A stretch of 64,000 bases of DNA, taken from the IMG/VR virus record IMGVR_UViG_3300044826_000112, one strand, 5' to 3'. This DNA is from a virus. Each line of letters begins with the position of its first letter. Position 1 is the stretch's first letter. The position numbers and the translations under genes are program-made. Positions 1 to 20,102 of this stretch are shown piece after piece. Under the pieces are notes generated by a model. That model searched no databases. It was not told the DNA's origin and saw only the letters and a program-made list of their open reading frames with translations.

Positions 1-1458
1 CGGAGAGATACGCTCACCGTACTGCGGCATCGGAGTTACACGTTGCTTCTCTGCAGACTTCTGCATAGGAGCGGACATGACGATCTCCACCTTACCCTTC
101 TCTTCGGCAGACTTCATGAAGCGTTCTGCATCACCCAGTTGCAGACCTTGGTCGACAACCATGATGCGAACTACGTCAGCCTTGCCACCTACTTCACGGC
201 CGTCAATAGAGAACACACCGCCGCGGGCAACCAGAGTGTGACGCTCAGCCAGGTGAGACATAGCACGCATCTCGTGACGACGTAGGGCTACGCCCAGGTC
301 AGTCTCGAACTCGTTGCTCACGTGGGTGTACGGAGCATAGGTGCACACCGGGTTCAGGAACCATACATCGCGTTCCTTGACGGATAGGCCATGCATGTTG
401 TTCAGGACTTCGATACGCTCTACACCATCACGGCAGGAGATGGTCAGACCTTGAGGGGTACGCAGGACGGAGCGGATGGAGGCTGTGTCGTAGTTGGTAC
501 CGTTAAAGATAACAACACGACCGTCTACCTGGCCGATTTCACCGATCTTCTTCAACTTAAGACGGTCGATGATGTCCTTGTAGTTGATCTCTTGATCCAC
601 GATCACTGGAGGACGGCTGTGAGTGAAGTCACGCACGGAGCCATCTTCGAAGGCAACGAGGAACTTCAGGTCGTTGGTCGGCAGGATTGCACCACCGATC
701 AGGTTACCGTCACGCTTAACGAACATGTAGCCGCGGCCAGAGTCGTTACGCTTAGCGTAGCCGAAGTTGTTTGCACCAAAGCTTTCCACCGCAACGCGAA
801 GAGTAGCCGGAGCACCCTTAACGTGGTAGCCCTTCTGGAGGATGTCCTGAATAGCTTGTTCATCCAGACCCTTACCGGAAGTGATCACCTGGGGGATCTC
901 TACGGACACGGTCTCTTCGACAGGCAGATTGCTCTTAACTGCTTCAACCAAGCCCTCTACGTCGAGGAACTTGGAGAGAGTAGCTACGAGGCTAGCGTCT
1001 TCAGTCAGAAGCTGCAGGAGCTCCTTACGCATCTCAGGATTCATAGCTGCCGCCATGTCAGCAATTCGGCTACCGGATGCATAGACGTACTTGCCGGTAC
1101 GGGGCGGCACGATTACGTCTTTAAGGTCAGGGTTACGGACGGCAGAAGACGGAGTCTTAGCCTTACGACCCATGTTTTCGTTCTGGTTAGCGGTAATCTG
1201 TTCGACGGTCTTCTTGGTCAGAGGCATGAATTGCTTCTTGTCTGCCATGAAGATGGAGTCGATGGGATACACAGTACCGTCTTTGGCGATAACCGGAACG
1301 AAGAAGTTGCTGCCGCCTTGGGCAAGCACGAAGCAGCCAACCTGCACGCCGGAGTTTTCTGGAAGCTCTTCAGTCATGTCGTTGAACGACAGGATGAACT
1401 TCGTCAGCTCCGGGGCAATCTTGGCCAGCTTCTCTTGAGCTAGTTCGCCTAAATTCAT
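1..1458 (-). CDS. Hypothetical protein, probably virion-associated; runs off the window edge
   Basis: ATG at 1458 with AGGAG RBS; open frame MNLGELAQEKLAKIAPELTKFILSF... appears to continue to position 1 (absent from the ORF track, consistent with no stop in the window); lies in the minus-strand block with the portal and RNAP genes. Confidence 0.75.
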   Translation of the reverse strand, partial: MNLGELAQEKLAKIAPELTKFILSFNDMTEELPENSGVQVGCFVLAQGGSNFFVPVIAKDGTVYPIDSIFMADKKQFMPLTKKTVEQITANQNENMGRKAKTPSSAVRNPDLKDVIVPPRTGKYVYASGSRIADMAAAMNPEMRKELLQLLTEDASLVATLSKFLDVEGLVEAVKSNLPVEETVSVEIPQVITSGKGLDEQAIQDILQKGYHVKGAPATLRVAVESFGANNFGYAKRNDSGRGYMFVKRDGNLIGGAILPTNDLKFLVAFEDGSVRDFTHSRPPVIVDQEINYKDIIDRLKLKKIGEIGQVDGRVVIFNGTNYDTASIRSVLRTPQGLTISCRDGVERIEVLNNMHGLSVKERDVWFLNPVCTYAPYTHVSNEFETDLGVALRRHEMRAMSHLAERHTLVARGGVFSIDGREVGGKADVVRIMVVDQGLQLGDAERFMKSAEEKGKVEIVMSAPMQKSAEKQRVTPMPQYGERISP

Positions 1459-1501
1459 CGATGGATTCTCCTAGGTAATCATCAATAGTTTATCATTGAC
1501 G

Positions 1502-1521
1502 AAGGGGTTGTTGCCAACCCC
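1502..1521 (-). terminator. Hairpin after the RNAP beta' C-terminal gene
   Basis: AGGGGTTG-TTGC-CAACCCCT inverted repeat just past the stop codon; weak U-tract. Confidence 0.45.
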
Positions 1522-1529
1522 TATCAGAA

Positions 1530-3365
1530 TTAGTACTTACCGTCCTTGCCTTCACCGAACGCCCCACCGATCATGTATGGAGTAATCGGGTCGGTACCGC
1601 TGGTTTCAGCCTTGTGGCCCATAACCATGGCTTCACGCAGGCTCTTACCGAGCTGTTTGAACGCCAGACGGGATACCCAGTTGTCATCGTACAGCTTGGC
1701 AGTCTTGATGCCAGGTACGAGTGGGGTGATGGATAGACCGCTCTTAGATACCACTACGTTCTTCACGCCGTGAGATACTAAGTATGCCACATGGTTCTTA
1801 TCCAGCAGAGTACCCGGGGTGTATTCCAGAGCATGCTCAGCCAGTTGGCGACCAAAGGCCTTTTCAGTAGGGATGGTTTCCGCATCTTCACGCAGAGCGT
1901 TGTGGATGTGGTTGATGGAAACTACCTGGCCAGGCAGGAAGCCTGTGTTACCAGCGTCCTTGACTGTCACATACTTGACCAGGTTGCGAGCAATCAGGTC
2001 GAAGTGACGAGGATCCAGCTTGTTGCCGCCTTCTTGGTAGATGTGACGCAGCTGGTTGGACATGTAGGCACGACCAGTACCGATACCTCTTAATGAAGTC
2101 AGTTTACGCGGGTTTACAGTACCACTGGACAGAGGATCACCCTGTTTGATGGCATCACCTACGTGAACCTCTACATCCTGGCTGTTAGGAACGAAGTGCA
2201 TGGTGTTACCCACGAATACTCGGTGGTCCTTCAGTTCAGTCTGCTCGATCTTGCTCACGACACCGTCTACAGTGGAGATAACGGCTTCATCCTGGAAGTT
2301 CTCCGGGTTGGTCAGCAGGTTATCTGTCAGTTCGTACGGGTTGCTTGCCTTACCGGCTTTCGCATCGTGCTTGGTAGACAGGATCATCTGGGTCAGAACT
2401 TCGGATGCTGACTGAGCAGCTACTACACCTACGTTCTCCCCGATTTCCGGAACCTTACCGCGGGCGTTCAGCCCGTAGCACTTGCAGCACACGCCATCCT
2501 TAGCTTCACAGGTAAGTGTGGTGCGGATCTTGATGTTCGTCTTACCGGAGTGCTTGAGCTCGGAGTAATACGCCTCATCGATCAGCTTGTTGGTGCCGGC
2601 TTCGTAGTGGAACATGACACGCTTCTTGTCAGCTACTGGATACATCATACCGTTAGCAGTATGACAATCAGGTACGGTCACAACCTCATGATAGAGGTTA
2701 GGAGTGATCGACTTGAACATGTCACCTGGCTTACTGGTAGACAGCTGTGCCTGTACAACGTTACCACGACCCCAATAGGACATCGCCAGCTGCTCAGCAG
2801 CAGACAGACCTTCAGCGAAGGAGTGAGTGATGGCCAGAGGGATAGGAGTCCCGTCGATCTTCTTACTTTGGATAGGAGAAGAAGTACCTTGTTGCAGCTG
2901 GGATGGGTTACCACGAGCACCGGTCTGAGCCATGATTGCCGCGGTAGACTTCTTACCGAGCATGTACTCCAGGTTCTGCTTAGTCAGCAGCCCTTGATAC
3001 TTAGTGGTCGTGTCGATCAGCTTCTCGTTACGCTCACGAGTAGAGATATCTCCCAGGCCCATAATGTGGTTAACCTGTGTCTCATACTCCGCCAGCATAG
3101 CCTTACGCTCTTCACTGTCGTTGTAGTAGTCGGACAGCGGAGTGGAGTAGCCATGGTCAGTAGCAGTATTGAAGAACAGATTGGACACAGCAGTAATGGC
3201 ACGAGGGGCATCTTCTCCGCCGTGCGTAACGATGTCAGCGATAAGGTCCTTCACGCCGTTCTTGTCCAGAACACGGGTAGGATCGAATCGCTTTTGCACT
3301 TCCGGAGGCAGAAGACGCTTAACGCGAAGAGCTCCGGGTGTGATGATTCTTTCTGAATTGCTCAT
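1530..3365 (-). CDS. rpoC: DNA-directed RNA polymerase beta' subunit, C-terminal part (rpoC2-like)
   Basis: GARGNPSQLQQ and SFAEGL (pre-bridge and bridge helix), Zn site DCHT...TCEAKDGVCCKCYG, trigger loop GVVAAQSASEVLTQMILSTKH, DPRHFDLIARN; ATG at 3365 behind AAGAAGG. Confidence 0.93.
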   Translation of the reverse strand: MSNSERIITPGALRVKRLLPPEVQKRFDPTRVLDKNGVKDLIADIVTHGGEDAPRAITAVSNLFFNTATDHGYSTPLSDYYNDSEERKAMLAEYETQVNHIMGLGDISTRERNEKLIDTTTKYQGLLTKQNLEYMLGKKSTAAIMAQTGARGNPSQLQQGTSSPIQSKKIDGTPIPLAITHSFAEGLSAAEQLAMSYWGRGNVVQAQLSTSKPGDMFKSITPNLYHEVVTVPDCHTANGMMYPVADKKRVMFHYEAGTNKLIDEAYYSELKHSGKTNIKIRTTLTCEAKDGVCCKCYGLNARGKVPEIGENVGVVAAQSASEVLTQMILSTKHDAKAGKASNPYELTDNLLTNPENFQDEAVISTVDGVVSKIEQTELKDHRVFVGNTMHFVPNSQDVEVHVGDAIKQGDPLSSGTVNPRKLTSLRGIGTGRAYMSNQLRHIYQEGGNKLDPRHFDLIARNLVKYVTVKDAGNTGFLPGQVVSINHIHNALREDAETIPTEKAFGRQLAEHALEYTPGTLLDKNHVAYLVSHGVKNVVVSKSGLSITPLVPGIKTAKLYDDNWVSRLAFKQLGKSLREAMVMGHKAETSGTDPITPYMIGGAFGEGKDGKY

Positions 3366-3454
3366 TGCACACACCTTCTTGGTTGATCAACTAGCTCTAT
3401 TTTAGAGCTTACTGGTTTAGGCACATGTGTGTGGCCTCTTTGGGTCTGTGGCCG

Positions 3455-3775
3455 GTGTGTTCCAGGCCTCAAACCGCGTCCTGACAGCATTCTACTACAA
3501 AATGTGTGCGATGTGTCGATGTTCCACCTCCCAAACACACCCTATATCAGAAAATCCCAACCACCCCTCTCTATTTATTTATTTATATTTTCCTTACGAG
3601 AGATAGAGAGATATATAGAGAACGACACATTAGGTGTTTTAAGGAAGTAGGTATGTATTTTGGGGTGGAACACACGACACAACCGACACATACTGGCCGA
3701 AAAGCCTATGAAATCGTTGTTTTATGTGTCGATTAGACTCAAAATGACCCGACACATGACCTAAAAATGTTCCAG
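3455..3775. repeat. Palindromic iteron-rich non-coding element, copy 1
   Basis: Core 3502-3709 is the reverse complement of about 45716-45925 (shared TTTTCCTTACGAGAGATAGAGAGATATATAG and GTATGTATTTTGGGGTGGAACA..CGACACAACCGACACA); many GACACA/TGTGTC and TGTTCCA/TGGAACA units around an AT-rich centre. Confidence 0.9.
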
Positions 3776-3821
3776 TTAGAAAGCAAAATGTGCACATCAG
3801 GAGGCCTGTGTGCACACTTTC

Positions 3822-4046
3822 TTACTTGATGATCCGATTTAGGATCCGATTGTCTGGCGAGAAGTTGACTGGTTTGCCATCCCGGGAGACCGGACGTGTA
3901 GTTCCACCATATGAGGACGACTTTGGAGAGAAGTCCGTAGGTTTTCCTACCTTAGCTTGCGTTAAGTTGGCCGGAATACGGGTTGTCGGAGTCGACGTCT
4001 TCGGATTGGTCATCTGTCTGACCTTCGCCAGTAGTCTTGCTGACAT
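3822..4046 (-). CDS. Small basic Thr/Pro/Ser/Lys-rich hypothetical protein
   Basis: GGAGG RBS 5 nt before the ATG at 4046; MSARLLAKVRQMTNPKTSTP...; overlaps the 3' end of 3952..4659 in another frame. Confidence 0.55.
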   Translation of the reverse strand: MSARLLAKVRQMTNPKTSTPTTRIPANLTQAKVGKPTDFSPKSSSYGGTTRPVSRDGKPVNFSPDNRILNRIIK

Positions 4047-4659
4047 AGTAACCTCCAATGCTACCTACGGCTCTGCCGATTAGGTTGCCTGTAGCTGCAC
4101 TGTTCAGAACAGTGCTCAATCTGGCCAGTTGTGACACCTTACCAGCTGCCGGCATGGCCTTAGCAGCGTACAAACCACGAGCCAAACCTGCCAGAATACC
4201 TACATTGCCGCCCATTTCGACGCCACGACGGTGAATTTCGTCTCTTGGAGCCTGCAGGACTCCAGGAAGCTTGTTCTTGTAGTCTAGATACGCCATGGTG
4301 CCGCCAGTAGCCAGTCCGCCAAGCATGCCACCTACCAGCATCGGTCCAAAAGTCCCGACTGTGGAGCTCATAGGTGTGAATAGACGAGCTTTGTGAACTA
4401 GTGCATTGCCTGCACGAGCCCCTAGCTTCAATCCACCCAGTACACCAGCTTGTACAATGGCATCCTGAAGAGGATTATCTTCAGCCAGCTTGGTGAAATT
4501 ACCAGTTTGGCTGTTGGAGCCATTGCGGTTGAACACTGACATCATCTTTGAGCGGACATATAGACCAAAACGGCGACGTGGGTCACCGTGCTGGAGGTAT
4601 TGTGCCACCTGTTTGACCTCAGGGGTCAAAACGGTAGAGTTGTTGGTGCTGTCTGCCAT
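3952..4659 (-). CDS. Hypothetical protein with Gly/Ala-rich hydrophobic (glycine-zipper-like) helices, possible internal virion/ejection protein
   Basis: GGMLGGLATGG, GGNVGILAGLARG, GNLIGRAVGSIGG segments; structural operon context. Confidence 0.65.
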   Translation of the reverse strand: MADSTNNSTVLTPEVKQVAQYLQHGDPRRRFGLYVRSKMMSVFNRNGSNSQTGNFTKLAEDNPLQDAIVQAGVLGGLKLGARAGNALVHKARLFTPMSSTVGTFGPMLVGGMLGGLATGGTMAYLDYKNKLPGVLQAPRDEIHRRGVEMGGNVGILAGLARGLYAAKAMPAAGKVSQLARLSTVLNSAATGNLIGRAVGSIGGYYVSKTTGEGQTDDQSEDVDSDNPYSGQLNAS

Positions 4660-4811
4660 TATAACCCCTTCATTCTTCGTAGCAGCTTGATCACCCTGTT
4701 AGCCGTATGACGTCTCTCTTTGTTGAACGTACGGATTGCCTTGATGGCACCGATGCTCATACCTAGAGTCATCCCTTGGCGTAGGTAATCTGGGCTGTAG
4801 TTATCGTTCAT
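4659..4811 (-). CDS. Small hypothetical protein (50 aa)
   Basis: GAGG RBS before the ATG at 4811; stop overlaps the next start. Confidence 0.55.
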   Translation of the reverse strand: MNDNYSPDYLRQGMTLGMSIGAIKAIRTFNKERRHTANRVIKLLRRMKGL

Positions 4812-4846
4812 AGACACCTCAATAGAGGGCCCGAAGGCCCTCATCC

Positions 4847-7800
4847 TTACCCCTTGATCTTAATCGGAGTATTGTCGTCAATCTCGCCGCGTTCAAGAGC
4901 CTTCATAGCTTCATCTTCCGATGCAAACTCGACGACTGCCTTCTCGTGGTCCGGCTTGGTCAGGTGTACAGAACCCAGGATAGCTTCGTGACCAGGAGCA
5001 AACATCGGGTTACCGAAGCCCTTACGAGCATCGTGTAGGTGGTGTTCTGGCAACAGCTTCTCTTTCGCTTCCTTGATGGCCTCTGGGGACATCGGAACGA
5101 ACGCAGACATAGCGTCACCGTCATAGTCAGCAGCATAACCCGGCAGGTGCAGAATGTTAAGACCGATAGTCTTACCTGCAACTGGAATCGGCTTCAGGGC
5201 CATGATGTTGGTACGCATCAGGGTTGGAGCACGGTTCAGGATCAGCGGAACCTCGTCTACCATCTTGTTGAAGGACGCAGTAGCAGCGGTGTTACGCTCT
5301 TCGTACGCCTTCTTAGCAGCAGCCAGGTCGTAACCCTTCTGAGACAGGTCGCGGATGATGTGCATCTTGTACATCTCCCACAGCTGCTCTTTAGGGAACT
5401 TCGCTTCGTTGAAGCCTACGTCCGGAGCCGCGTAGATTACAGCACGACCAGAGAAGTCCTGCTTCTTACGCAGAATCTTGTCGTGGAAGTAACCGTACTT
5501 CGGAGAGGTAGTACCTGTGATGGAAGTCATCAGGCCCTTCACACCCTTCTGCTTGGATTCATAGTCGATAGGGTCACCACCGGCCATGATAGCCTTCGCA
5601 CCGGCATACAGGTCACGACGCAGATCCGCCATACCTTCCATATCCGGCAGTACCATATCCTTTCCGCCTGCCTCTTCGTAGATCTTGTTGATCCGATTGG
5701 AGACCAGCATGTGGTGTTGGTACAGCTTGTTCACGTCACCATACTCGATGTTCTGGTTGGTGATGGAGATTGGACGCATCTTCGGAGGGATGACCGGTAC
5801 ATGGTGCAGAACCATCGCCTTATCCAGCTCCTTGTGACCCTGAGAGTGCAGACCGTGCAGGAACTTCAGACGCTTGATGGCGTCGTTACGCTTGCTCACG
5901 GAGGTGCTCTTCTTGATAGCCTCTTTCAGGGCTTCAATTTCCTCTGCAGGATCGATGTCTTGAAGCATCTGCTTGAATGCTTCGCCGCCAACCTGAGGCT
6001 CGACGTACTCGTCGTACTTCTCGGCCTTCTTGGTGATGCCACCAATGATGCCTACCTGACGTAGAACCTTGTCGTTATCGTGGGTGTCGACGATGTCGTA
6101 CAGACCCTTCTCACGACGAACCACACCGTAACGGCCAGAAGTGATGTTGTCGAACTCCTTCTGGTTGATGTTCAGGATGGTCTTCAGCGGGTTCTCCAGG
6201 TTCGGGTTAACGATTGGCTCCGCCAGAGTGTAGTGAGACCACTTGCTCCCTTCGAAACCACCAGTGATGGTCTGGTCGAAGATAGAGCCAGGTTCGCCCT
6301 TCTGAGTACGAGCTTTCATGCTGATGGTGTTAGTCACCTGACCCTTGGAAAGGTTCAGCACGTCGTTATCGGTCATCGGACCGGCCTGCAGGAAACCTTC
6401 CTTATGGCTTACCTTGATACCAGAACCACGCAGGTAGTCCAGGAACTTCTTGGTAGCGAAGGTAGTCTTCGGCTGTGGCAGAGGCATACCCTTCATCAGA
6501 CGTTCCCAGTAATCGTGGGTGTCGGAGTTGATACCACCTTCGGACTTCACAGTGCCAATTTCCTTCAGGTTCTTACGAGCATCGGAGCCCAGCAGACCCA
6601 GGAATTCCATGTAAGACACGGCCTTGGCACCATCGTCACCGCCTTTGGTAGGTTGTGCGTTGTTGTCATAGCCACCTACGGAACGGGCAGAGTAGTTCGC
6701 GTCGGTAGTCTTGTTCAGCTTGATGATGTACTGAGGACCTGCAAGAACCTTGTCACCGATGGTCTTCCCGGAAACCGGGTCGTAAATTTCTTCGGTGTCA
6801 GACAGGTTGTGCTTCTTCAGATCATCCATCACTTTGACGATGTTGTTCTGGTTTTCGTAAACGACAGTCTTGTAAGGCTCGCCGGTCTTCTTGGCGATCT
6901 TCGCAGCTGCAGTTTCCAGAACTTGGCCCAGGTTGATACGAGAAGTAACAGACGCAGGGTTCAGCACCAGATCAACAGGCTTACCTGTATCACGGCTGTG
7001 CGGCATCTCGTGGTCTTCCATGATGTGGGAGATAACCCCCTTGTTACCGTGCAGACCAGTGATCTTGTCACCAATCTCCAGGTCACGCTCACAGCGAACC
7101 AGGATACGTACGTTCTCGGAGTCGGTGTAGACGTCTACAACTTCGCCCGGCTCTTCGTGATCCCACACCTCGGACACAACCTTGTACGGGTTGGTCAGAG
7201 TCTTGTAGAGACGACCTAGGACCTTGTCGGTCTCGGTAGCCTGACGCTCTTCCAGAACTGCAAAGACCGGATCACCGTACTCCAGCTTAGTGCCCTTCTT
7301 AGGGAAACCACGCTCATCCAGCTTAGCCAGCTGAGACGGAGTGAACTTGGAAGTCTGCTTGGACAGCAGAGCCTTGTTCGTCTTGGTAATCTTGGTGATG
7401 GTGTAGTCGAACTTGTAGGCATGGTGGCTACGCAGAGACTTAGTCGCAGAGCGAGATGCGACGATACCATCTTCGTGGTTGTAACCCTTGTAAGGCATGT
7501 AGGCCACGTGCAGGTTCTTACCGATGGCCAGTACGCCATCCTTGGTGTAGTTGTTGTCAGCCAGAGTCTGGCCGGCAGTCACCTTGTCACCTACCTTGTG
7601 CTGGTACGGTTCGTCATCATGGAATCCTTTCATGTTGAACGGCAGGTTCTTCACGAAGTCAACTACATGGTTCTTACCATCAGCACCCTTGATGTGGACT
7701 TCCTCGTCGGTAGCCTTGGTGATGATGCCGTCGGTAGGAGCCAGAGTAGAGATGATCTTCCCGATGTGGTGAACATAGGAGTGACCAGAGTTCGGATCCA

Positions 7801-9436
7801 CGGTTTGCACCAGCGGAGCTTCGCGACCAACCAGAGACAGAGCCTGCGGCAGTGCTTTACCAGCCATGGTCAGACGACCTGGGTGGTTACTGTTCAGGAA
7901 CGGCACAAGGTTAGTGGTGATGGTGTACATATCTGTACCAGACGGGATCCAGTACTGTACTTGCTCACGAGGAACTTTACGGAATTCCCCATTGACCTGG
8001 GCAGTAACGACAGGTTTGCCGTTATCTTTTTCTCCCGGGAAGCCAACTACGTGAACCATCAGCTCGTGGGTAGACAGGTACACTTCCTTGCCAGTCTTCG
8101 CATCGAGTGCACGGGAGTACATGGTACCCTCTTTGTCACGACGAGCGGTGATAGTGAAGCGTTGGTCCAGACCAGCCATACGGGATTCAGGCGTACGGGA
8201 CGGGTCGATGATGCCCAGATGGGATGGGTGCACGTTACGTGACTCCATAGGGGCAGACTGGTCGTCCTTGATACCACCCTCACCTTGACCGATGATGGTT
8301 ACCTTACCGACGTTCTCGAGGGATTCGATAGGGTTGGTTTCGTCCGGAGTACTTGCCAGCTGGGACTTGATGATGAAGTCTTCGAAGACGCGATTAAACG
8401 GCTTGGAAGGCAGAACCTTACGCAGGTCAGGAGCTGCATCATCGAGACGGCTCAGGTTGTACTTGATACGGTCGAAGCTACGGGTAACAGTCTGGTGTGC
8501 CTTGTTCTCGTCAAAACGACGAGCAATGAAGTCAGGCAGGTTCTGTACACGCTTGAACTGGAGGCTGTCACGGTTATCTTCCGGACGCTCACGACGGTAC
8601 AGAGCAACCAGGTTGCTGATGGCACGCAGGAAGACTTCACCATTCACATGGCTGAAGGATTTACCCAGGGTGATGCCAGTAGTGTCTTCGTTCAGAGAAC
8701 CTTCTTGGATACGACGACGAAGAGCCTCGATACGTTCCTCGTAAGAAGCGTTAGGGTTCATGTCACGTTGGTTCATCATACGGCGATACAGATCGCGGAT
8801 GATGCGGTCTTTCTGAGGCAGAACGGCCTTGTTGGCCTCCCAGATTTCCTTACGGATGAACTGGGTGATCTGAGCATCAGTGTAGCCGAAGACCTCGGTC
8901 AGTACTGGAGCTACAGGGAGCTTCACAGACTTATCGCCGATCTTGCTGAAGGTGATGATGTAAGTAGTCGGGTCCATCGCAATGGAGTAGCCCACACCGA
9001 CACCCGTGTTGAAATGGTTCTCTGGCTCGCCTGTGTTCTTACGGCGAGTGTACACACCAGGACGCAGCTGGATCAGGTTGGCAACGGAGTAGTTGTTACC
9101 CTTGTAGATCAGCGTGTGCTTGTTGGTGATGTGGAAAGTATCAGCCAGAGAGAAACGCTCGATCTTGTCGACGAGTTCTCCAGAGGCGATATCGTACAGA
9201 AGCAGAGTACCTTTCACCGGATAGGTTAGGGAGCCGGATTTCAGAATGGCTTCCTTCTCATGCTTATGAGAGAAATCCTTCTTGTCAACGTACAGGTCCT
9301 TTACATCAAGACGGTACTTGCCCGTCTCGATAGGGAACTGACGTTTGATCCCGTCCAGCATAGCCTGGTCGGTAGACTCGTTCATGTCTACTGGGCTGCT
9401 GAAAATAGGGATCAGTTGGTCAGGGCTCTTAGGCAT
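4847..9436 (-). CDS. rpoB: DNA-directed RNA polymerase: full beta subunit fused to the N-terminal/catalytic part of beta'
   Basis: Beta motifs RNVHPSHLGIIDPSRTPES, AYMPYKGYNHEDG, GDKITGLHGNKGVIS, LNPASVTSRINLGQVLE; beta' motifs VPVIPPKMRP, KKQDFSGRAVI, LNRAPTL and catalytic AADYDGD (5114-5134); junction near nt 6400. Confidence 0.95.
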   Translation of the reverse strand: MPKSPDQLIPIFSSPVDMNESTDQAMLDGIKRQFPIETGKYRLDVKDLYVDKKDFSHKHEKEAILKSGSLTYPVKGTLLLYDIASGELVDKIERFSLADTFHITNKHTLIYKGNNYSVANLIQLRPGVYTRRKNTGEPENHFNTGVGVGYSIAMDPTTYIITFSKIGDKSVKLPVAPVLTEVFGYTDAQITQFIRKEIWEANKAVLPQKDRIIRDLYRRMMNQRDMNPNASYEERIEALRRRIQEGSLNEDTTGITLGKSFSHVNGEVFLRAISNLVALYRRERPEDNRDSLQFKRVQNLPDFIARRFDENKAHQTVTRSFDRIKYNLSRLDDAAPDLRKVLPSKPFNRVFEDFIIKSQLASTPDETNPIESLENVGKVTIIGQGEGGIKDDQSAPMESRNVHPSHLGIIDPSRTPESRMAGLDQRFTITARRDKEGTMYSRALDAKTGKEVYLSTHELMVHVVGFPGEKDNGKPVVTAQVNGEFRKVPREQVQYWIPSGTDMYTITTNLVPFLNSNHPGRLTMAGKALPQALSLVGREAPLVQTVDPNSGHSYVHHIGKIISTLAPTDGIITKATDEEVHIKGADGKNHVVDFVKNLPFNMKGFHDDEPYQHKVGDKVTAGQTLADNNYTKDGVLAIGKNLHVAYMPYKGYNHEDGIVASRSATKSLRSHHAYKFDYTITKITKTNKALLSKQTSKFTPSQLAKLDERGFPKKGTKLEYGDPVFAVLEERQATETDKVLGRLYKTLTNPYKVVSEVWDHEEPGEVVDVYTDSENVRILVRCERDLEIGDKITGLHGNKGVISHIMEDHEMPHSRDTGKPVDLVLNPASVTSRINLGQVLETAAAKIAKKTGEPYKTVVYENQNNIVKVMDDLKKHNLSDTEEIYDPVSGKTIGDKVLAGPQYIIKLNKTTDANYSARSVGGYDNNAQPTKGGDDGAKAVSYMEFLGLLGSDARKNLKEIGTVKSEGGINSDTHDYWERLMKGMPLPQPKTTFATKKFLDYLRGSGIKVSHKEGFLQAGPMTDNDVLNLSKGQVTNTISMKARTQKGEPGSIFDQTITGGFEGSKWSHYTLAEPIVNPNLENPLKTILNINQKEFDNITSGRYGVVRREKGLYDIVDTHDNDKVLRQVGIIGGITKKAEKYDEYVEPQVGGEAFKQMLQDIDPAEEIEALKEAIKKSTSVSKRNDAIKRLKFLHGLHSQGHKELDKAMVLHHVPVIPPKMRPISITNQNIEYGDVNKLYQHHMLVSNRINKIYEEAGGKDMVLPDMEGMADLRRDLYAGAKAIMAGGDPIDYESKQKGVKGLMTSITGTTSPKYGYFHDKILRKKQDFSGRAVIYAAPDVGFNEAKFPKEQLWEMYKMHIIRDLSQKGYDLAAAKKAYEERNTAATASFNKMVDEVPLILNRAPTLMRTNIMALKPIPVAGKTIGLNILHLPGYAADYDGDAMSAFVPMSPEAIKEAKEKLLPEHHLHDARKGFGNPMFAPGHEAILGSVHLTKPDHEKAVVEFASEDEAMKALERGEIDDNTPIKIKG

Positions 9437-9722
9437 TTAAGCGTCTCTCCAAATAAGTAACAACAATGGTGTAAGTACCAGTAGCCGGAGAGATGGAGTC
9501 TTTACGTTCAACGATCATGACACCACCGTCCGGGCGGATGCTACGGGTCATCAAAGCTTCAAGTTCGGCTTGGGAATCAAAGCCGTTCTCTCCGCCAATC
9601 TGGTAGTAGCCAATGCGGTACTGGAACTCATCGGGGCTTGGTTTCTGAGAAACACCCCCGGTCGTTAGACCGGGAAGTGATACTTCTTGGGAAACCGAAT
9701 CAAACGGATTCAGTCCACTCAT
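9429..9722 (-). CDS. Hypothetical protein (97 aa)
   Basis: ORF overlapping both neighbours between the portal and RNAP genes. Confidence 0.75.
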   Translation of the reverse strand: MSGLNPFDSVSQEVSLPGLTTGGVSQKPSPDEFQYRIGYYQIGGENGFDSQAELEALMTRSIRPDGGVMIVERKDSISPATGTYTIVVTYLERRLNA

Positions 9723-11542
9723 TCCTTATCTCCACTCTTCTTAGGAGCCGGCTTCTTCTCAGCAGGCTTCTTCGGTTCAGGCTTCTTGGCTTCCGGCTTA
9801 GGAGCCGGAGCTCCACCGCCTTCTTCCATTTCCTCTTCCGGCATACCTTGAGCAACCATAGAGTGGTCGCTCAGCATCTGCTGGATGATCTCTAGAACGC
9901 TATTGTACAGCGTAGGATCGCTTTGTTGAAGCTGAGTTAGAGCTGCACGCTGCTCGGCAGGGTCAGTCATCTGGTTCAGGATCTTGTTGGCGATCTGGTA
10001 CGCTTGCTGCTGGTTCTGTTGGAAACCGTTATCGTCTTGGTTCTCAGAGTTCACGTCCTTGGACTTCATGAACTTGGCAATCTTCAGTTCGTGTTCGACC
10101 TGAACATCACTTTCAACCTTAGCGACAGCATCCTTACGCATCTTCTCCAGCTCTTCGCTGTACTCGATGCCGCTAGCTTCCAGGAAGGTGCTAGTGGAGA
10201 TAAGTTGAGCCTTCCACATCTCGAGCATGAGCTGCTTCAGGTTCTCGTTATCCGTAAGTTTAAACGGAACGAGGCTGATCGGAACGATTTCCAGACCGAG
10301 GTATTGGGAGATCTTCTCCATTACCCACTTGATGAAGTCTTCGATCTGACCAACGTAGTTGTTCATAGTGTTTTCCAGCAGGCGTAGGCCTACAGTGGAG
10401 CTGGTCCAGTTGGTAGTACCGGACAGAAGCTCGCGGGAAACACCCATAGACATCAGCATTGTCTCTTCAGCGAACTGCAGTTCCTGGCTAACCAGCAGGG
10501 ATTTACCCTGACCGCCCAGGTTCTGGTAACCCACCGGCACTGGAGCGATGATTACGTGGTTCGGGTCCTTCTTGAAGTGACGGATGTTCTGCTTCATCTG
10601 GTCCGCAAAGTTACGCATAGACATCATCGCAACCGGGTCACCTTGACCGGAGGACTGCTGAGGGAACATTACTCGCAGAGGAGTCATGTGCTCAGAGGCT
10701 ACCGCTTCGTTTGCCTTACGCAGCATTGCTTGGTAGAACACCAGGCCGTACTGGGAGATGAGCGGAGGCACACCCATACCGTCAATCATGCCACCCATAG
10801 AGATGGTCTTCAGGTGGTACACGTTAGAGCGGTCGAACAGGAAGTCCGTATTGCTCTTAACTGCATCCACGAAAGGCCACGGCACAGAGGAGATGAACAG
10901 GGGGTCACCTGTCATGATCTTCCGCTTCACATCACCTGGGATGGTGTAGTAGTAGTCAGCCTCATCGGTGATCGGGTTGTGGTTGATCGCGATGTTTTCA
11001 GGCTTCCACTTCACCAAGTTGATGCGGGAGATGTCCATGCTCTTCTTGTCGATGCGATTGAAGATGCCTTTCATAGCACAACGAGGGCATTCACCCACGA
11101 ACTCATAACGTTTGAACTTGACGAAGCCCTTAGTAAGAGCGTTCTTGGCTTCATAGGAGCTCTTGCAGCTAGGGCACTCGACGTAGCGATCGACCGGGAA
11201 GTAGATCGAGGAGATCACGTTACCCAGAGTGTAGTAGTCAAAGCCGATGTCCGTCAGCTTGTACTTCAGACGGATGCTGTCGATGATCTTGCGGTACGAT
11301 GCACGAGTCTTTTCCTGCTTGGTATCGATAACGAAGTCCGTGATCGGGTACGAGGAAAGCTTCCGGATTACCTCAGTGGTAGTCGGAGCCTGAGTCGTGA
11401 TGTAACGAGACCATTTGATCACGTCATGGAAGTTGCGAGGGACGAACTGGTTGGCAACCGTGAAGAACGGGTTGGGCAACTGGCCAATGCCATATTGTTC
11501 GTACATACCCGCCATTTGTGGCGCCATGCCTGGAATATTCAT
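9719..11542 (-). CDS. Putative portal protein with a zinc-ribbon insertion
   Basis: About 607 aa; DYYTLGNVISSIYFP, VYHLK...GMGVPPL, and LLVSQELQFAEETMLMSMGVSRELLSG resemble the portal layout; CPSC...CPRC insertion; low-complexity E/K/P tail. Confidence 0.6.
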   Translation of the reverse strand: MNIPGMAPQMAGMYEQYGIGQLPNPFFTVANQFVPRNFHDVIKWSRYITTQAPTTTEVIRKLSSYPITDFVIDTKQEKTRASYRKIIDSIRLKYKLTDIGFDYYTLGNVISSIYFPVDRYVECPSCKSSYEAKNALTKGFVKFKRYEFVGECPRCAMKGIFNRIDKKSMDISRINLVKWKPENIAINHNPITDEADYYYTIPGDVKRKIMTGDPLFISSVPWPFVDAVKSNTDFLFDRSNVYHLKTISMGGMIDGMGVPPLISQYGLVFYQAMLRKANEAVASEHMTPLRVMFPQQSSGQGDPVAMMSMRNFADQMKQNIRHFKKDPNHVIIAPVPVGYQNLGGQGKSLLVSQELQFAEETMLMSMGVSRELLSGTTNWTSSTVGLRLLENTMNNYVGQIEDFIKWVMEKISQYLGLEIVPISLVPFKLTDNENLKQLMLEMWKAQLISTSTFLEASGIEYSEELEKMRKDAVAKVESDVQVEHELKIAKFMKSKDVNSENQDDNGFQQNQQQAYQIANKILNQMTDPAEQRAALTQLQQSDPTLYNSVLEIIQQMLSDHSMVAQGMPEEEMEEGGGAPAPKPEAKKPEPKKPAEKKPAPKKSGDKE

Positions 11543-11606
11543 TATCAAACCTCACTTAGCTAGTCTGCTTTAAGTTTAAGTGGATTCAATTCTACACTGT
11601 GGCTCC

Positions 11607-11677
11607 GGTATAAGGAAGATAGAGTGGAGCAATAGGTTCACTTCTAAACCATTTTTCCTACACCTTACCGGTATAAG
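11607..11677 (+). promoter_or_regulatory. Two GGTATAAG phage promoter motifs (11607, 11670), the second inside a hairpin
   Basis: Motif recurs upstream of many plus-strand genes; TTCCTACAC...GTGTAGGAA flanks the second copy. Confidence 0.6.
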
Positions 11678-11722
11678 ATCAGTGTAGGAAACCTTACATA
11701 TACTCAATTGAGGAATTTTGCT

Positions 11723-12220
11723 ATGAACAACTCCAACAAGAAAGCCCAAGGTCAACAAGGTCAATCCACCGAAGCCAAAGATCTGCTCGACGCCTTGGCA
11801 GGCAAGACAGCAGAAGAACAGAACCAGATTCTGGCTGCTGCCATCGAAGGCACCCGTCAGACCATGGAAGATGACATTGGTAAGCTGACCCGCAGCCAAG
11901 AAGAGATGGCTCGCAAGCTGGATGCTCTGGCCGGTGCGGCTGTGAAAGGTCAAGTAGACGAGACCGCCAAGGTCGAGAAGAAAGGCCTGGCCTCCAGTGC
12001 TCTGGACACCATCAAGAACCGTCCGATCGTGGTTGGTGCTGCTGTGGCTACTACTGTGGCCGTCGGCGTAGGCGGCGTGTATGCCTACAAGAAGTATCAG
12101 GAAAGCAAAGCTGCAGCCACCACTGGCGAGACCAGCGAAGCCGTACTGCTGCTGGACCAACCGTCTGCTGTTGAAGTCAGCAAAGACGCAGCTGTAGCGG
12201 CCGCCCTGGGCGATCGCTAA
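11723..12220 (+). CDS. Hypothetical membrane-anchored coiled-coil protein
   Basis: GAGG RBS; heptad-like N-terminal half; single TM segment IVVGAAVATTVAVGVGGVYAY followed by KKY; strong codon bias. Confidence 0.8.
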   Translation: MNNSNKKAQGQQGQSTEAKDLLDALAGKTAEEQNQILAAAIEGTRQTMEDDIGKLTRSQEEMARKLDALAGAAVKGQVDETAKVEKKGLASSALDTIKNRPIVVGAAVATTVAVGVGGVYAYKKYQESKAAATTGETSEAVLLLDQPSAVEVSKDAAVAAALGDR

Positions 12221-12230
12221 GCTGTAAACT

Positions 12231-12259
12231 AAAGAGGGGGCACATGCCCCTTCTTTTTT
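12231..12259 (+). terminator. Rho-independent terminator
   Basis: AAAGAGGGGGCACATGCCCCTTCTTTTTT. Confidence 0.75.
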
Positions 12260-12267
12260 ACTAGGAG

Positions 12268-12561
12268 ATGGTTATGACACCAATGGAAATGCTGGAGTAC
12301 ATTAGGGTTCCCGGTTTGCCCGGTAATCCATTCCAGGAGTTGACCGCTAAGGTCGACAAAGTGATCGCAAAGTTGCGTTGGGGGCAGGATGGTGGAGGCC
12401 TAGTTAAGCGTATCGGCAACAATGTCGACCGTTTGAACAAGCTGAAGTACGTATTGATGTCCAACTCAGTCTCGGAAGACGAGCTCAAAAAAGCCGCCGA
12501 GGAGATTGAACCCCTCATGGCGGCTATTCACAGAGATGCTGACCTATTGCTTACGCTTTAG
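12268..12561 (+). CDS. Hypothetical protein
   Basis: AGGAG RBS, 97 aa helical ORF. Confidence 0.7.
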   Translation: MVMTPMEMLEYIRVPGLPGNPFQELTAKVDKVIAKLRWGQDGGGLVKRIGNNVDRLNKLKYVLMSNSVSEDELKKAAEEIEPLMAAIHRDADLLLTL

Positions 12562-13465
12562 GGAGAATCTTCGTTTGCTGAATCAGAACCGTACCATTCT
12601 GAACCATCGGACCACCAAGCGAAACAGTCTTCGCGGTGGCGTTGATGGTGAAGGTCGTCTGATACAGACCTGAGACGTATACTTCGATACTGTCTTTACC
12701 TAGTCCCAAGTCCATGCCGGCCACGGCACCTACGTTGATCACCTGGTCACCCTTAGCAAGGGAGACTTCGTGGCGGATCTTCGTGATACGTGCGTCGGCA
12801 AGGGATACTGGACCCAGGGTACCAATCGCAATCAGCTTGGACATGTCCTTCATGTTCAGCATCTTGATATCAGCTGCTGTCAGAGCGGTTTGACCATAGC
12901 CAAGAGTGAAGCTCAGGACCGGAATCTGACCGGAGTCAGGAGCAAGACCTGGTTCAGTACCAGTTTCTACGTACTCAGCGGTGTTCTTGATGGACAAGCG
13001 GCACACCTTGATCAGGGAGTTGTTAGATGGCACCCGATCGTTTTCAGTAGGCTCATCTAGACGTGCCTGTACCAAGTACTTGATACGGCGGCCTGGAGTG
13101 GAAGACGCCTGGATGTTCGAGAAGGTAGTCGGCTTGTCATGGATGCCCAGTACCGGGATCTTGAAATCCGGATCCTGAGGGTTGATGATCTGGCTTTGTA
13201 CCATGTATCCGAACATGAACTTCAGACGGAGTCCGCCCGGGTAGTTCAGTAATCCCGCGAATTGGTCAAGACCAACGATGGACATCGCAGTAGCTGCGGC
13301 ACCAAGAGCGGAACGGTCAGCACCACCAGTAACAAGGTCAAGCTCGTTACAGATGGTCAGCATGTTCTGGTGCAGGTCCTGCAGTGGACGGTTATCCACT
13401 GTGTAGTAGTACGGATCTAGCGGGGTGTAGAAACGTACGGCGGTAAGTTTGCTTGCGGTTGTCAT
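12551..13465 (-). CDS. Hypothetical protein, probable virion/baseplate component
   Basis: GAGG RBS; N-terminal YYYTVDNRPLQDL and beta-rich C-terminus (IEVYVSGLYQ); TAAAAT motif upstream as for other structural genes. Confidence 0.65.
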   Translation of the reverse strand: MTTASKLTAVRFYTPLDPYYYTVDNRPLQDLHQNMLTICNELDLVTGGADRSALGAAATAMSIVGLDQFAGLLNYPGGLRLKFMFGYMVQSQIINPQDPDFKIPVLGIHDKPTTFSNIQASSTPGRRIKYLVQARLDEPTENDRVPSNNSLIKVCRLSIKNTAEYVETGTEPGLAPDSGQIPVLSFTLGYGQTALTAADIKMLNMKDMSKLIAIGTLGPVSLADARITKIRHEVSLAKGDQVINVGAVAGMDLGLGKDSIEVYVSGLYQTTFTINATAKTVSLGGPMVQNGTVLIQQTKILPKA

Positions 13466-13509
13466 ATAGTGGTATCCTCTTAACCGTGCTTATTTTACGA
13501 GAGAATGGT

Positions 13510-15417: not shown

Positions 15418-15463
15418 CCACTAAGGGGCACCATCACGGTGCCCTTTGTCTAAGGAGGTTTTG

Positions 15464-17219: not shown

Positions 17220-18008
17220 TTACTCTTTTAGGTTTGGGTCTGATTCGAGGATTTGGTAGACACGTTTACGTACATCCCGTACGTACTCAGCGGTCACTTC
17301 TGGATCGTTAAGGATCTCGACGATCTCGAGAGGTCTTTTCTCCACGCCGTCTTCAATACCGAACAGCATGATGGCAATGTGGCAATCTCGCGGAGGAAGC
17401 TCCTTCAGCTTGCCCATAATGTATGCCTCCATATTGTCTTGCTCTACAAGCTCAAATGGATTGTCTTCAGGCATATCAGTCGGGTTCATCTCTTCGAAGT
17501 AGAAGGTCAGATATTGGGTTTGACTGAGTTCATTGAGATCCTTCACCGGTACGTTAGGGAACTCCTTCTGCAGATCTCGCAGCGGTGGATGGCGTTCGCA
17601 CGAATCCATGTAGCGTTTGATCTTGGCGGCCAGTTGCTGTTTCTGCGTGGGCAGTGACACAAGACGCCATCTCGACATCTCCTTGAGCTGACGCTGCATG
17701 ACCCACCATCCAGAGTACGTCAAAAGTCTGACGCCTGAGTTCGGATCATACTTATCCAGACCGACAATGAGCCCTTCGTTTCCCACTGCGATCAGCTCTT
17801 CGAGTTGGTCTGCATTACCTTTGGCGTACTTCTTTGCCTTCTTAAAGACGTAGCGTAGGTTGGCGTTGATCAGGCGATCTCGGACAACCTTCTTCCTGGT
17901 AGGGGAAACATCGGGGTCAAAGTACTCGCCTAGTAGAACTTGCTCCTCCTCCTTACTTAGAGGGGGATGCTTTCGATAAATCTCTTCGTAATATTGTGAT
18001 AATTCCAT
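17220..18008 (-). CDS. Phage sigma70-family RNA polymerase sigma factor
   Basis: Region 1.2 (YYEEI..HPPLSKEEE), region 2 (RLINANLRYVFKKAKKY; ELIAVGNEGLIVGLDKYDPNSGVRLLTYSGWW), region 4-like LPPRD...FGIEDG...VTAEYVRDV. Confidence 0.9.
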   Translation of the reverse strand: MELSQYYEEIYRKHPPLSKEEEQVLLGEYFDPDVSPTRKKVVRDRLINANLRYVFKKAKKYAKGNADQLEELIAVGNEGLIVGLDKYDPNSGVRLLTYSGWWVMQRQLKEMSRWRLVSLPTQKQQLAAKIKRYMDSCERHPPLRDLQKEFPNVPVKDLNELSQTQYLTFYFEEMNPTDMPEDNPFELVEQDNMEAYIMGKLKELPPRDCHIAIMLFGIEDGVEKRPLEIVEILNDPEVTAEYVRDVRKRVYQILESDPNLKE

Positions 18009-18079
18009 GGTGGCTTGATCTCCGATGACCAAGCGTATAGTATCTACCCGGACATGTTTAGTCAAACAAAGGAGTTTAC

Positions 18080-19202: not shown

Positions 19203-20102
19203 ATGGACCTATCCTACCTTGCGGACGCACCGGTACTTGCTGAGATTACGCCGGAAGCCCTAGGGCCCTGGTCTCCATCTCGGATGAAGTGCCTTGAGAA
19301 ATGTCCACTTCAGTTCTACCTCAAGTACATCGCTAAAGTAAGCATCCCGGATGAAGAAATGGGCGATGTGGATACGCTTAACCGAGACATCGGTACAGCA
19401 GCCCACCTGGTCATTGAGTTGATGATCCAGAAGAACCTCACCGCTAATGACGCATTCGATATGGTGAAGCACATCTATCGGACTCGCTTTAACGAGGAGG
19501 AAATGGAGTACTTCGAAGGTCTACGGCAGACCATCCGTGAGTTCAAGTATTGGCTGTTCCAACTTGAAGAGTCCAGACCAGAAGGTCGAATCAAGGATGC
19601 CATTGCAGAGCTGGAGTTAGCGGTCGACAAGAACTTCTTGCCGGTGCCTTATGATTCTCCCAAAGCATTCCTGCGTGGCAGTATCGACTTGAAGCTGGAT
19701 TTCTTCGATGGTGGTCGCATTCTGCTTGACCATAAGCACGGGGGGAACCCTGCCTTCGGCATCAAGTACCACATGCCTCAACTCAACATCTACACGCTGC
19801 TTGCTCACTTCGGCCATGAAGCTTGCAAGTACTCATCTTCCGGGATCAACTTCCTCCGTCAAGCAGGCCGTACTATCAGCCCTACAGCTCACCGCGACGA
19901 GATTGAGAAGGTTCTGACCGTGTGGTTCCATAACCGCATGAAGAAGATGTTCGACGCCATCTATGATGCCGGCGAGATGTTCTACAAGCGTAGCAGTATG
20001 TGTCAGTATTGTGAGTTCCAGGCGATGTGTACTAACGGTAAACGAGGGACCTCTGGTGAACTGCATAACCTGCAGATCGCTACGAGAGTACTCTTCAGCT
20101 AA
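19203..20102 (+). CDS. PD-(D/E)XK exonuclease (RecB/Cas4-like)
   Basis: WSPSRM..CPLQFY, GTAAH, LRGSIDL, LLDHKHG, QLNIY, C-terminal CQYCEFQAMC. Confidence 0.85.
   Translation: MDLSYLADAPVLAEITPEALGPWSPSRMKCLEKCPLQFYLKYIAKVSIPDEEMGDVDTLNRDIGTAAHLVIELMIQKNLTANDAFDMVKHIYRTRFNEEEMEYFEGLRQTIREFKYWLFQLEESRPEGRIKDAIAELELAVDKNFLPVPYDSPKAFLRGSIDLKLDFFDGGRILLDHKHGGNPAFGIKYHMPQLNIYTLLAHFGHEACKYSSSGINFLRQAGRTISPTAHRDEIEKVLTVWFHNRMKKMFDAIYDAGEMFYKRSSMCQYCEFQAMCTNGKRGTSGELHNLQIATRVLFS

Follow-up and report, generated by a model that had tools for sequence, protein, structure and literature searches.

The window examined here is a stretch of 64,000 nucleotides (nt) that corresponds to bases 96525-160524 of a 175,261-bp IMG/VR virus record (IMGVR_UViG_3300044826_000112) judged 98% complete. 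As read from their sequences, two of its genes encode the catalytic core of a bacterial-type phage RNA polymerase (RNAP) on two polypeptides. The first polypeptide carries an intact beta subunit joined to the N-terminal part of beta' (beta'N), the second the C-terminal part of beta' (beta'C). In the reading that we consider probable, this two-piece core arose by fission from an ancestral single chain, the covalent link between beta and beta' replaces alpha, and the enzyme is packaged in the virion and injected together with a sigma factor. The closest cultured relative is Salmonella phage Arash, a 180.8-kb myovirus, followed by Vibrio phages D69, D181 and D148.

The first gene is an uninterrupted open reading frame (ORF) of 1529 amino acids (aa) located at 4847-9436 on the minus strand. 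Along this chain, the Pfam domains Rpb2_3 (aa 365-432), Rpb2_6 (aa 629-932, E 9e-58), Rpb1_1 (aa 1017-1257) and Rpb1_2 (aa 1362-1459, E 1e-15) follow one another, with Pfam matches of 197 bits for the window RNAP. A fusion of beta with beta'N on one ORF, as proposed in a first-pass annotation of the same DNA, is therewith borne out. Beta chains in the PDB cover aa 79-1026 with scores of up to 232 bits. N-terminal parts of beta' chains follow: residues 436-831 of T. thermophilus beta' match aa 1127-1529, and residues 170-515 of E. coli beta' match aa 1139-1494 (position 831 of T. thermophilus equals ~550 of E. coli). Using MAFFT with E. coli rpoB and rpoC, the C-terminus of beta was located at aa ~1014, from where the chain runs into beta' residue ~15-20 without a linker. 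The C-terminal beta motif (aa 998-1009, nt ~6410-6445) and the chain end ...IKIKG are found where the first-pass annotation had placed them. Both double-psi barrels sit on this chain, as had also been claimed. The beta barrel carries the motif GLHGNKG (aa 794-800, nt 7037-7057), and the catalytic loop of beta' reads AADYDGD (aa 1435-1441, nt 5114-5134). The loop departs from NADFDGD in two positions, N to A and F to Y, and its three Asp are intact. No change is seen in D1437, D1439, D1441 and GLHGNKG across 11 relatives, the most distant of them at 44% identity. Beyond the loop, the protein extends for another ~90 residues. The clamp helices, which bind sigma region 2, are kept. By alignment, no counterpart of the four-Cys zinc-binding domain of beta' (E. 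coli ~66-95) was found in any of the three phage architectures described below, and aa 1010-1220 of the fused protein contain no Cys.

The second gene follows 1473 nt downstream and combines Rpb1_5 with the bridge-helix and trigger-loop motifs read from its translation, which confirms a separate beta'C gene at a distance of 1.5 kb. The listed ORF (1530..3374, minus strand, 614 aa) begins at a GTG at 3374. The true start is likely the ATG at 3365, six bases past a GAAGG ribosome-binding site. Against the C-terminal parts of bacterial beta' chains in the PDB, beta'C scores 115-159 bits (best 158.7); for instance, aa 55-492 match B. subtilis beta' 635-1101.

The two phage proteins are separated at a site that resembles the cut between cyanobacterial or plastid gamma (rpoC1) and beta' (rpoC2). 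Both cuts lie between the catalytic barrel and the bridge helix, at E. coli beta' ~552-590. The last residue of the first phage protein corresponds to E. coli beta' ~553-561, and beta'C begins ~8 residues ahead of a conserved segment that reads ITPGALRV here and TTVGRAILW in E. coli (~576). In Acaryochloris, rpoC1 ends right past this TTxGR segment (…TTPGRIIYNKTI…) and rpoC2 starts beyond it. Cyanobacterial RpoC2 chains in the PDB start at the equivalent of phage beta'C aa ~21-29, and their residues 5-13 align to aa 33. This means, the phage cut is found just before TTxGR and the Acaryochloris cut just after, ~20 residues apart. The first-pass annotation had described a convergent split close to the cyanobacterial one. 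The same loop-rich region and the convergence hold, whereas the sites are not identical. On this comparison, the two cuts are a convergence on a permissive, loop-rich region with different exact sites. In contrast to the phage enzyme, cyanobacterial beta is not fused to gamma, and phage beta'C lacks a large trigger-loop insertion. Acaryochloris RNAP groups within bacteria, far from the phage clade (see trees below), and gives no sign of common descent between phage and cyanobacterial RNAP; since a cyanobacterium falls inside the bacterial clade, the phage and cyanobacterial beta' cuts are independent. A split intein at the phage cut was considered and rejected, because beta'C has ~8 residues past the single-chain junction, too few for an intein half.

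To place the two genes among their relatives, IMG/VR was scanned with an alignment of fused proteins as query. At least 373 contigs encode a relative of this RNAP, and the ORFs of the best 80 of these loci were placed on both window proteins. Three architectures were distinguished. Type I (14 loci) is a single ORF of 2020-2470 aa (a beta::beta' chain of typically ~2050 aa) in which both window proteins are contiguous at 32-34% identity. In one such locus (L075), residues 34-1529 of the fused protein (P0001) correspond to 32-1483 and residues 12-614 of beta'C (P0002) to 1487-2061. No type I enzyme was found among the cultured phages of INPHARED. Type II is the layout of the window, with beta'C 0.6 to 4.8 kb downstream and unrelated genes in between. 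It comprises the window, Arash, D69 and close IMG/VR contigs. In type III (~40 loci, some 50 protein clusters) the first gene is cut again at aa ~1120-1148. This gives a protein of 1113-1160 aa, in which beta is followed by ~110 N-terminal residues of beta', a piece of ~385 aa with the catalytic barrel, and beta'C; in some loci (L069), the pieces are adjacent.

The type II layout is not confined to assembled metagenomes. In the complete genome of the isolate Arash (OQ632216; PMC10585845) it is represented by gp206 (1525 aa) and gp216 (606 aa). The Arash proteins and those of Vibrio phages D69, D181 and D148 are orthologues of the window proteins (65% and 56% identity). They share with the window the two-piece layout, the succession of portal gene, small ORF and RNAP gene, and a helicase gene after beta'C. 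Unlike in the window, the halves are 4.8 kb apart in Arash, with opposite-strand genes between them. As the layout occurs in the complete Arash genome, in D69 and in dozens of IMG/VR contigs, it is due neither to chance nor to an assembly error, and the artefact considered in the first-pass annotation does not apply. In the records and the paper, the proteins are labelled 'beta', 'beta-prime' or 'hypothetical', and the passages of the paper on RNAP do not mention a fusion (PMC10585845). In the literature, we found no described phage beta-beta' fusion of the kind seen in the window.

Beta'C was also compared exhaustively, without a profile, to 1.84 billion representative proteins, which yielded 5616 matches, 959 of them below E 1e-30. 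The best 150 clusters score 204-636 bits, compared to the 115-159 bits of bacterial beta' chains. The relatives of beta'C occur as stand-alone proteins of ~600 aa, as single chains of 2000-2090 and 2500-2590 aa, with a C-terminal extension, or with an intein-like insert. A stand-alone beta'C of 32% identity (P0133) is encoded 0.7 kb downstream of a 1473-aa Rpb2+Rpb1 fusion, which argues that type II is old. A member with an unfused beta was not found among the relatives examined. Relatives of 780-1400 aa had been candidates for an unfused full-length beta'; both that were checked begin at the first bases of their contigs and are truncated longer proteins. Relatives of ~1000 aa had been candidates for an mReC beta' (see below); the one checked has a LAGLIDADG match, so that its extra length is an intein-like insert.

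Several of these genes carry interruptions or additions. P0201 (L172:85-3093) and many other ~1000-aa homologues of beta'C are ~400 aa longer, with an insert near the equivalent of aa ~335 in the trigger-loop region. The LAGLIDADG_3 match of one ~1000-aa homologue suggests inteins in the beta'C gene. P0127, P0129, P0132, P0134, P0145, P0150 and P0154 form a 99%-supported subclade of stand-alone beta'C proteins with a C-terminal extension of ~400 aa. A break at residue 516/517 in locus L023 and in Vibrio phages D181 and D148 initially looked like a further split and proved to be due to group I introns (RF00028, 100-108 bits). These introns lie at codon 516/517 (L023:11536-11817; D181 (L002):9533-9813) beside a homing-endonuclease ORF, and the fused gene of D181 and D148, unlike that of the window, is interrupted by intron and endonuclease. 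D181 has a second intron (L002:5736-5943), which adjoins a further endonuclease and lies either within the portal gene or shortly ahead of it. GenBank records list the intron-split RNAP exons as separate hypothetical proteins.

The relationship to cellular enzymes and the order of events were studied with two trees. For beta'C, 145 rows and 598 columns were analysed in an IQ-TREE quick search (LG+G4) with bacteria as outgroup and branch support from the Shimodaira-Hasegawa-like approximate likelihood ratio test (SH-aLRT). For concatenated beta and beta', 57 rows x 1969 columns were analysed in a quick search under LG+G4. The bacterial sample comprised at least 80 rpoBC loci of ~20 phyla from species-representative genomes. 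Bacteria and phages are separated with 100% SH-aLRT in the beta'C tree and with 100% support in the concatenated tree, where the summed branch between them measures 1.4 changes per site. With the bacterial outgroup, the phage enzymes nest in none of the sampled bacterial phyla in either tree. The placement within a normal bacterial clade that the first-pass annotation had named as a counter-indication was thus not observed in these trees, which contain no archaeal sequences. Among the matches listed, every bacterial rpoBC locus shares 27-32% identity with the phage beta'N region, with no phylum ahead of the others. Within the phages, all 72 of 72 rows with a stand-alone beta'C (window, types II and III) form one clade in the beta'C tree (99%), and the single-chain forms branch as several basal groups, a grade around this clade. 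The concatenated tree shows two phage clades, one of type I (99%) and one of types II and III (100%); in the latter, type III forms a clade of its own (99%) within type II.

Since the stand-alone beta'C proteins group together in a single clade surrounded by single-chain forms, fission probably postdates fusion. Likewise, the ~2050-aa relatives with both proteins contiguous make the separate beta'C most simply a product of secondary fission and not the remainder of a beta' that was already split when beta was fused to it. The simplest history to be read from the trees would begin with a single fusion at the root of the lineage, followed by a fission that led to type II and a further one that led to type III. 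The re-cut architecture of the first-pass annotation is real, and its origin is now worded differently, as a lineage-wide beta-beta' fusion from which beta'C was most simply released by secondary fission. Some points weigh against this order. The direction depends on rooting the long phage branch with bacteria, the basal relations among single-chain forms are poorly resolved in the beta'C tree, type I and types II+III come out as plain sister groups in the concatenated tree, and both trees are quick LG+G4 searches with a long phage stem, without a mixture model and without an archaeal outgroup. The same reciprocal sister relationship and the same weak resolution would suit a history in which the two-piece form is ancestral and the ~2050-aa chains were formed by later re-fusion, and gene fusion is easy where type III pieces adjoin (L069). 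However, if the starting point is the bacterial state, with beta separate and beta' intact, fusion and fission must both have occurred on the stem and have been followed by one re-fusion or more, compared to two events when fusion comes first. It also has to account for single-chain forms in several basal groups and for the single 99% clade of stand-alone beta'C rows under the bacterial outgroup. We regard it as decidedly unlikely. Another account would be an artefact or a recent capture, with the phage carrying a bacterial rpoBC operon that is wrongly assembled or degenerating. Nothing was found in favour of this account beyond the general likeness to bacterial rpoB and rpoC. Intact frames, invariant catalytic residues, the recurrence of the layout in independent isolates and many IMG/VR contigs, the 27-32% identity to each sampled bacterial phylum and the fully supported split between bacteria and phages in two trees make it extremely improbable.

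The genome contains exactly one beta barrel (PF00562) and one beta' barrel (PF00623), each matching one ORF. For alpha and omega, no match of PF01000, PF01193, PF03118 or PF01192 was obtained at E<=1 in the 98%-complete genome, and in control searches these families were detected in 13-14 of 14 cellular genomes. The lack of both genes, initially noted for the window, therefore extends over the genome. By contrast to phages of the phiKZ type, two sigma-70-like genes are present (see table). In close type II loci, the one in the window is conserved with 45-53% identity, at ~9.4 kb upstream of RNAP. The other one, outside the window, adjoins the gene of a 1048-aa lysozyme-bearing virion protein.

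A weak beta'C match at C1:54785-55090 was considered as part of a second RNAP set and rejected, as it is a ~110-aa beta'-like segment in a 221-aa protein of the virion module. The gene of this protein, G000:C1:54494-55159 (minus strand; = L006:9494-10159), lies outside the window in the position of Arash gp7 'structural protein'. Its ~110-aa stretch is 29% identical to beta'C aa 218-331, the Cys cluster before the trigger loop (pairwise E 4e-8), and the protein looks like a virion protein with a duplicated beta' fragment.

Two lines of evidence link the RNAP to the virion. The portal gene, a small gene termed orf97 and the RNAP gene overlap stop-to-start, with 4 nt shared between the portal stop and the orf97 start and 8 nt between the orf97 stop and the RNAP start codon. 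The order of portal gene and RNAP gene is kept in all three architectures: the window portal shares 41-63% identity with the ORF that immediately precedes the RNAP gene in type II/III loci, and 28-32% with its counterpart in type I. In addition, virions of Arash were purified on a sucrose gradient and pelleted before mass spectrometry (PMC10585845). According to the proteomic data of that paper, gp206 yielded 3516 spectra, the most of any protein and above the major capsid protein, with 100% coverage. The beta'C orthologue gp216 was represented by 1210 spectra, the sigma factor gp10 by 467 and the helicase gp217 by 1148 (PMC10585845). By analogy with Arash, the window RNAP is likely packaged in the virion.

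These data would fit the following mechanism. An ancestor of the lineage may have had a single beta::beta' chain. A single fission, at a surface-exposed position that precedes the cyanobacterial/plastid cut by ~20 residues, would then have given rise to the clade of the window. The present core would consist of beta::beta'N and beta'C, whose halves reassemble non-covalently. The covalent link between beta and beta' might stand in for the role of the alpha dimer in assembly, and promoter recognition would be provided by the sigma-70-like factors. The make-up of the core and the part ascribed to the covalent link have their basis in sequence and comparative evidence. The RNAP is probably made late, together with the head proteins. 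It would be packed into the capsid with one phage sigma factor and then injected, so as to transcribe early genes in the next infection. Later in infection, the second phage sigma factor could redirect the same core.

Two parts of this mechanism have to be weighed against other explanations. As to alpha, independence is deduced from gene absence only, and the enzyme could use the alpha of the host. In that case, the core would still need the host alpha dimer, perhaps also omega, and the phage would supply the large subunits and sigma only. It is known that cellular RNAPs with a natural beta-beta' fusion, such as that of Helicobacter, retain alpha. The zinc-binding domain excepted, most of the length of phage beta and beta' can be aligned with the bacterial subunits, and surfaces that contact alpha may persist. 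On the other hand, a 98%-complete genome encodes neither alpha nor omega. With varied environments, isolates from hosts such as Salmonella and Vibrio, and only ~30% identity to bacterial beta/beta', there would be many host alphas to fit. Moreover, the multisubunit RNAPs of phiKZ and AR9 function without alpha. Dependence on host alpha therefore appears somewhat unlikely to us. The delivery with the virion is affected by other considerations. The evidence for packaging comes from one mass-spectrometry data set, that of a 65%-identical relative. The Arash preparation also contained ribonucleotide reductases and kinases (116/252 proteins), and the authors themselves raise a carry-over of abundant proteins in their discussion of these data (PMC10585845). 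The polymerase could be real and yet act only inside the cell as a middle or late enzyme, with early genes transcribed by host RNAP. Portal adjacency and abundance in Arash would then reflect late, high expression. The clearly non-structural enzymes in the Arash preparation and the authors' own alternative (PMC10585845) speak for this explanation. So do ~47 promoter-like copies of GGTATAAGTA, some with TCAACA ~17 nt upstream, that resemble sigma-70-type promoters which the host enzyme might read, and the single RNAP set found here, where phiKZ-like phages need two sets for two roles. However, gp206 outnumbers the major capsid protein in spectra after gradient and pelleting, and gp216 and sigma accompany it (PMC10585845). 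A linkage of portal and RNAP genes that persists at 28-32% portal identity in three architectures is hard to credit to expression level alone. A purely intracellular role is in our view unlikely, and delivery with the virion is preferred.

Natural fusions of rpoB and rpoC, in which the C-terminus of beta continues into the N-terminus of beta', are known from Helicobacter and Wolbachia. These cellular fusions comprise ~2900 aa with a complete beta' and its zinc-binding domain, and alpha and omega are present. The type I phage enzymes are their counterpart. They differ in their chains of ~2050 aa with essentially no linker and without zinc-binding domain. In addition, the phage enzymes form a clade apart from all sampled bacteria, one campylobacterotan included.

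Among phage enzymes, the mReC RNAPs (Weinheimer and Aylward 2020, PMC7481178) are similar in that they are described as tailed-phage RNAPs akin to bacterial beta/beta' and outside the cellular clades. Both the mReC lineage and that of the window are mostly known from metagenomes, and the large terminase subunit (TerL) of the window matches PF03237, as in mReC. By contrast, in the entries of the mReC supplement that were consulted, beta is a protein of its own with ~1000 or ~1365 aa, as is beta' with ~905 or ~1005 aa, and none of these entries has proteins of 1500+610 or ~2050 aa (PMC7481178). In the passages of the paper that we draw on, fusion is mentioned only for crAss-like phages, and all eight mReC capsids found match PF07068 (Gp23) (PMC7481178). 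For PF07068, there is no match at E<=1 in the genome to which the window belongs. The metagenome identifiers of six relative loci are absent from the mReC supplements consulted (PMC7481178). The window enzyme is thus another deep-branching phage RNAP, with a possible kinship to mReC.

The phages phiKZ and AR9 likewise encode two-barrel RNAPs without alpha or omega, and phiKZ-type phages package one RNAP set in the virion (PMC7824862). In these phages, beta is divided into 2-3 proteins and beta' into 2, each genome encodes two paralogous sets, and there is no sigma. The window, in contrast, has one set, two sigma-70-like genes, and a beta that is intact and fused. The view that phiKZ-like RNAPs are more divergent was substantiated: the Pfam match of 197 bits compares with E values of 1e-26 to 8e-7 for the phiKZ-like PHROG families that match the window RNAP. 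The RNAPs of crAss-like phages and YonO resemble the first chain of the window in having both catalytic barrels on one polypeptide. According to the part of the mReC paper that treats them, they share little with beta/beta' beyond the barrels (PMC7481178), whereas the window enzyme aligns over nearly its whole length.

It has long been asked how the two large RNAP subunits find each other and what alpha is needed for, mostly by means of engineered E. coli RNAP fusions and splits. The lineage described here offers natural counterparts of such constructs, with ~2050 residues in total and enough likeness to bacteria for alignment and modelling. It provides a graded series of one, two and three pieces without alpha, omega and the zinc-binding domain. 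Predictions are directly testable, as two-piece members occur in culturable Salmonella and Vibrio phages. More broadly, and with less than even confidence, we propose that a large, almost wholly uncultured lineage of tailed phages has a minimal, bacterial-type and sigma-70-using RNAP that is derived from a single chain, does not need alpha or omega, is injected, serves as one core with a two-sigma switch, and was re-cut at least twice. If true, this would be the first sigma-dependent virion RNAP and one core that serves the whole infection by sigma switching. Such re-cutting would have occurred at permissive sites, in one case in convergence with the cyanobacterial/plastid cut, and would amount to a natural domain dissection of RNAP. 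If packaging holds, the virion RNAPs of N4 (a single-subunit enzyme) and phiKZ (a multi-piece enzyme) would be joined by a third kind. There is also an annotation problem: the fused gene is routinely called 'beta' and the second gene 'beta-prime', and surveys that demand separate matches for beta and beta' may miss or mis-score the lineage.

Table 1. Features of the RNAP region and sigma genes (window coordinates, except for the second sigma-70-like gene)
Feature	Position	Strand	Basis or remark
beta portion of fused gene, aa 1 to ~1014	6395..9436	-	Rpb2_3 and Rpb2_6; PDB beta chains; alignment with E. coli rpoB
beta' N-terminal portion of fused gene, aa ~1015-1529: clamp helices and catalytic double-psi barrel	4847..6394	-	Rpb1_1, Rpb1_2; PDB beta' chains
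beta'(C) gene	1530..3365	-	611 aa from ATG at 3365; Rpb1_5, weak Rpb1_4, PDB beta' chains
Parts of beta'(C): secondary-channel rim, bridge helix, second Zn cluster, trigger loop, C-terminal clamp	1530..3365	-	
Portal protein gene, first of the tightly coupled RNAP block	9719..11548	-	phrog_16240; position of Arash gp204 'portal protein'
Conserved 97-aa ORF (orf97) in the portal-RNAP interval	9429..9722	-	kept in type II and III loci
Two intervening ORFs, coupled to the RNAP gene	3952..4844	-	61 aa at 4659-4844; 235 aa, Gly/Ala-rich, at 3952-4659
577-nt stretch without credible ORF, upstream of the beta'(C) gene	3375..3951	.	short overlapping ORFs only; GC content 44.7% vs ~52% in the window
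Next gene after beta'(C), incomplete at the window edge	1..1458	-	positional counterpart of Arash gp217 'DNA helicase'
sigma-70-family gene, 281 aa, candidate specificity factor	17220..18065	-	Pfam Sigma70_r2, 35.3 bits, above cut-off
Second sigma-70-like gene, outside the window	G000:C1:50325-51065	-	region 3; 61% identical to Arash gp10

The product of orf97 has no match in Pfam or PHROG. It was considered as an analogue of omega and rejected: an AlphaFold2 model based on a 10-sequence alignment (predicted local distance difference test score 77) has a beta-alpha-beta-beta arrangement without an Rpb6-like fold, and its best PDB match has an E value of 0.04. Judging from this model, orf97 is not omega-like. 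Its counterpart in Arash, gp205, is absent from the portion of the virion table consulted in the paper on that phage (PMC10585845). The two small ORFs between the RNAP genes continue without gaps after the fused gene. They have neither a Pfam or PHROG match nor a homologue at the equivalent position in related loci. The 577-nt stretch that follows matches no Rfam family and may harbour the promoter of a unit of beta'C and helicase genes or an uncharacterised RNA. Homologues of the gene downstream of beta'C are found downstream of RNAP in type II/III loci; its partial product has no Pfam match.

Between the RNAP block and the sigma gene, the plus strand of the window (13453-17056 and 19203-20102) encodes an SNF2-family helicase, a DEAD/ResIII helicase with Helicase_C_2 and a PD-(D/E)XK nuclease. 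Both helicases are kept beside the portal-RNAP block in type II/III relatives.

A scan of positions 1-12600 for the sigma-70 consensus revealed promoter-like sites no more frequently than in shuffled sequences, and the motif GGTATAA(G/C)TA has no copy ahead of the minus-strand block of RNAP and portal genes. This motif, often followed by ..TGGAG, occurs in ~47 copies in the genome, 46 of them on the plus strand; examples in the window are at 15411, 18295, 36870, 41408, 42698, 44068, 51795, 59562 and 60948. Some copies are preceded by TCAACA at a distance of ~17 nt. GGTATAAG was found in 9/87 upstream regions, compared to 0.8 expected. Most copies of GGTATAA(G/C)TA are intergenic, 12-60 nt upstream of plus-strand genes, and the motif is a candidate for a class of phage promoters.

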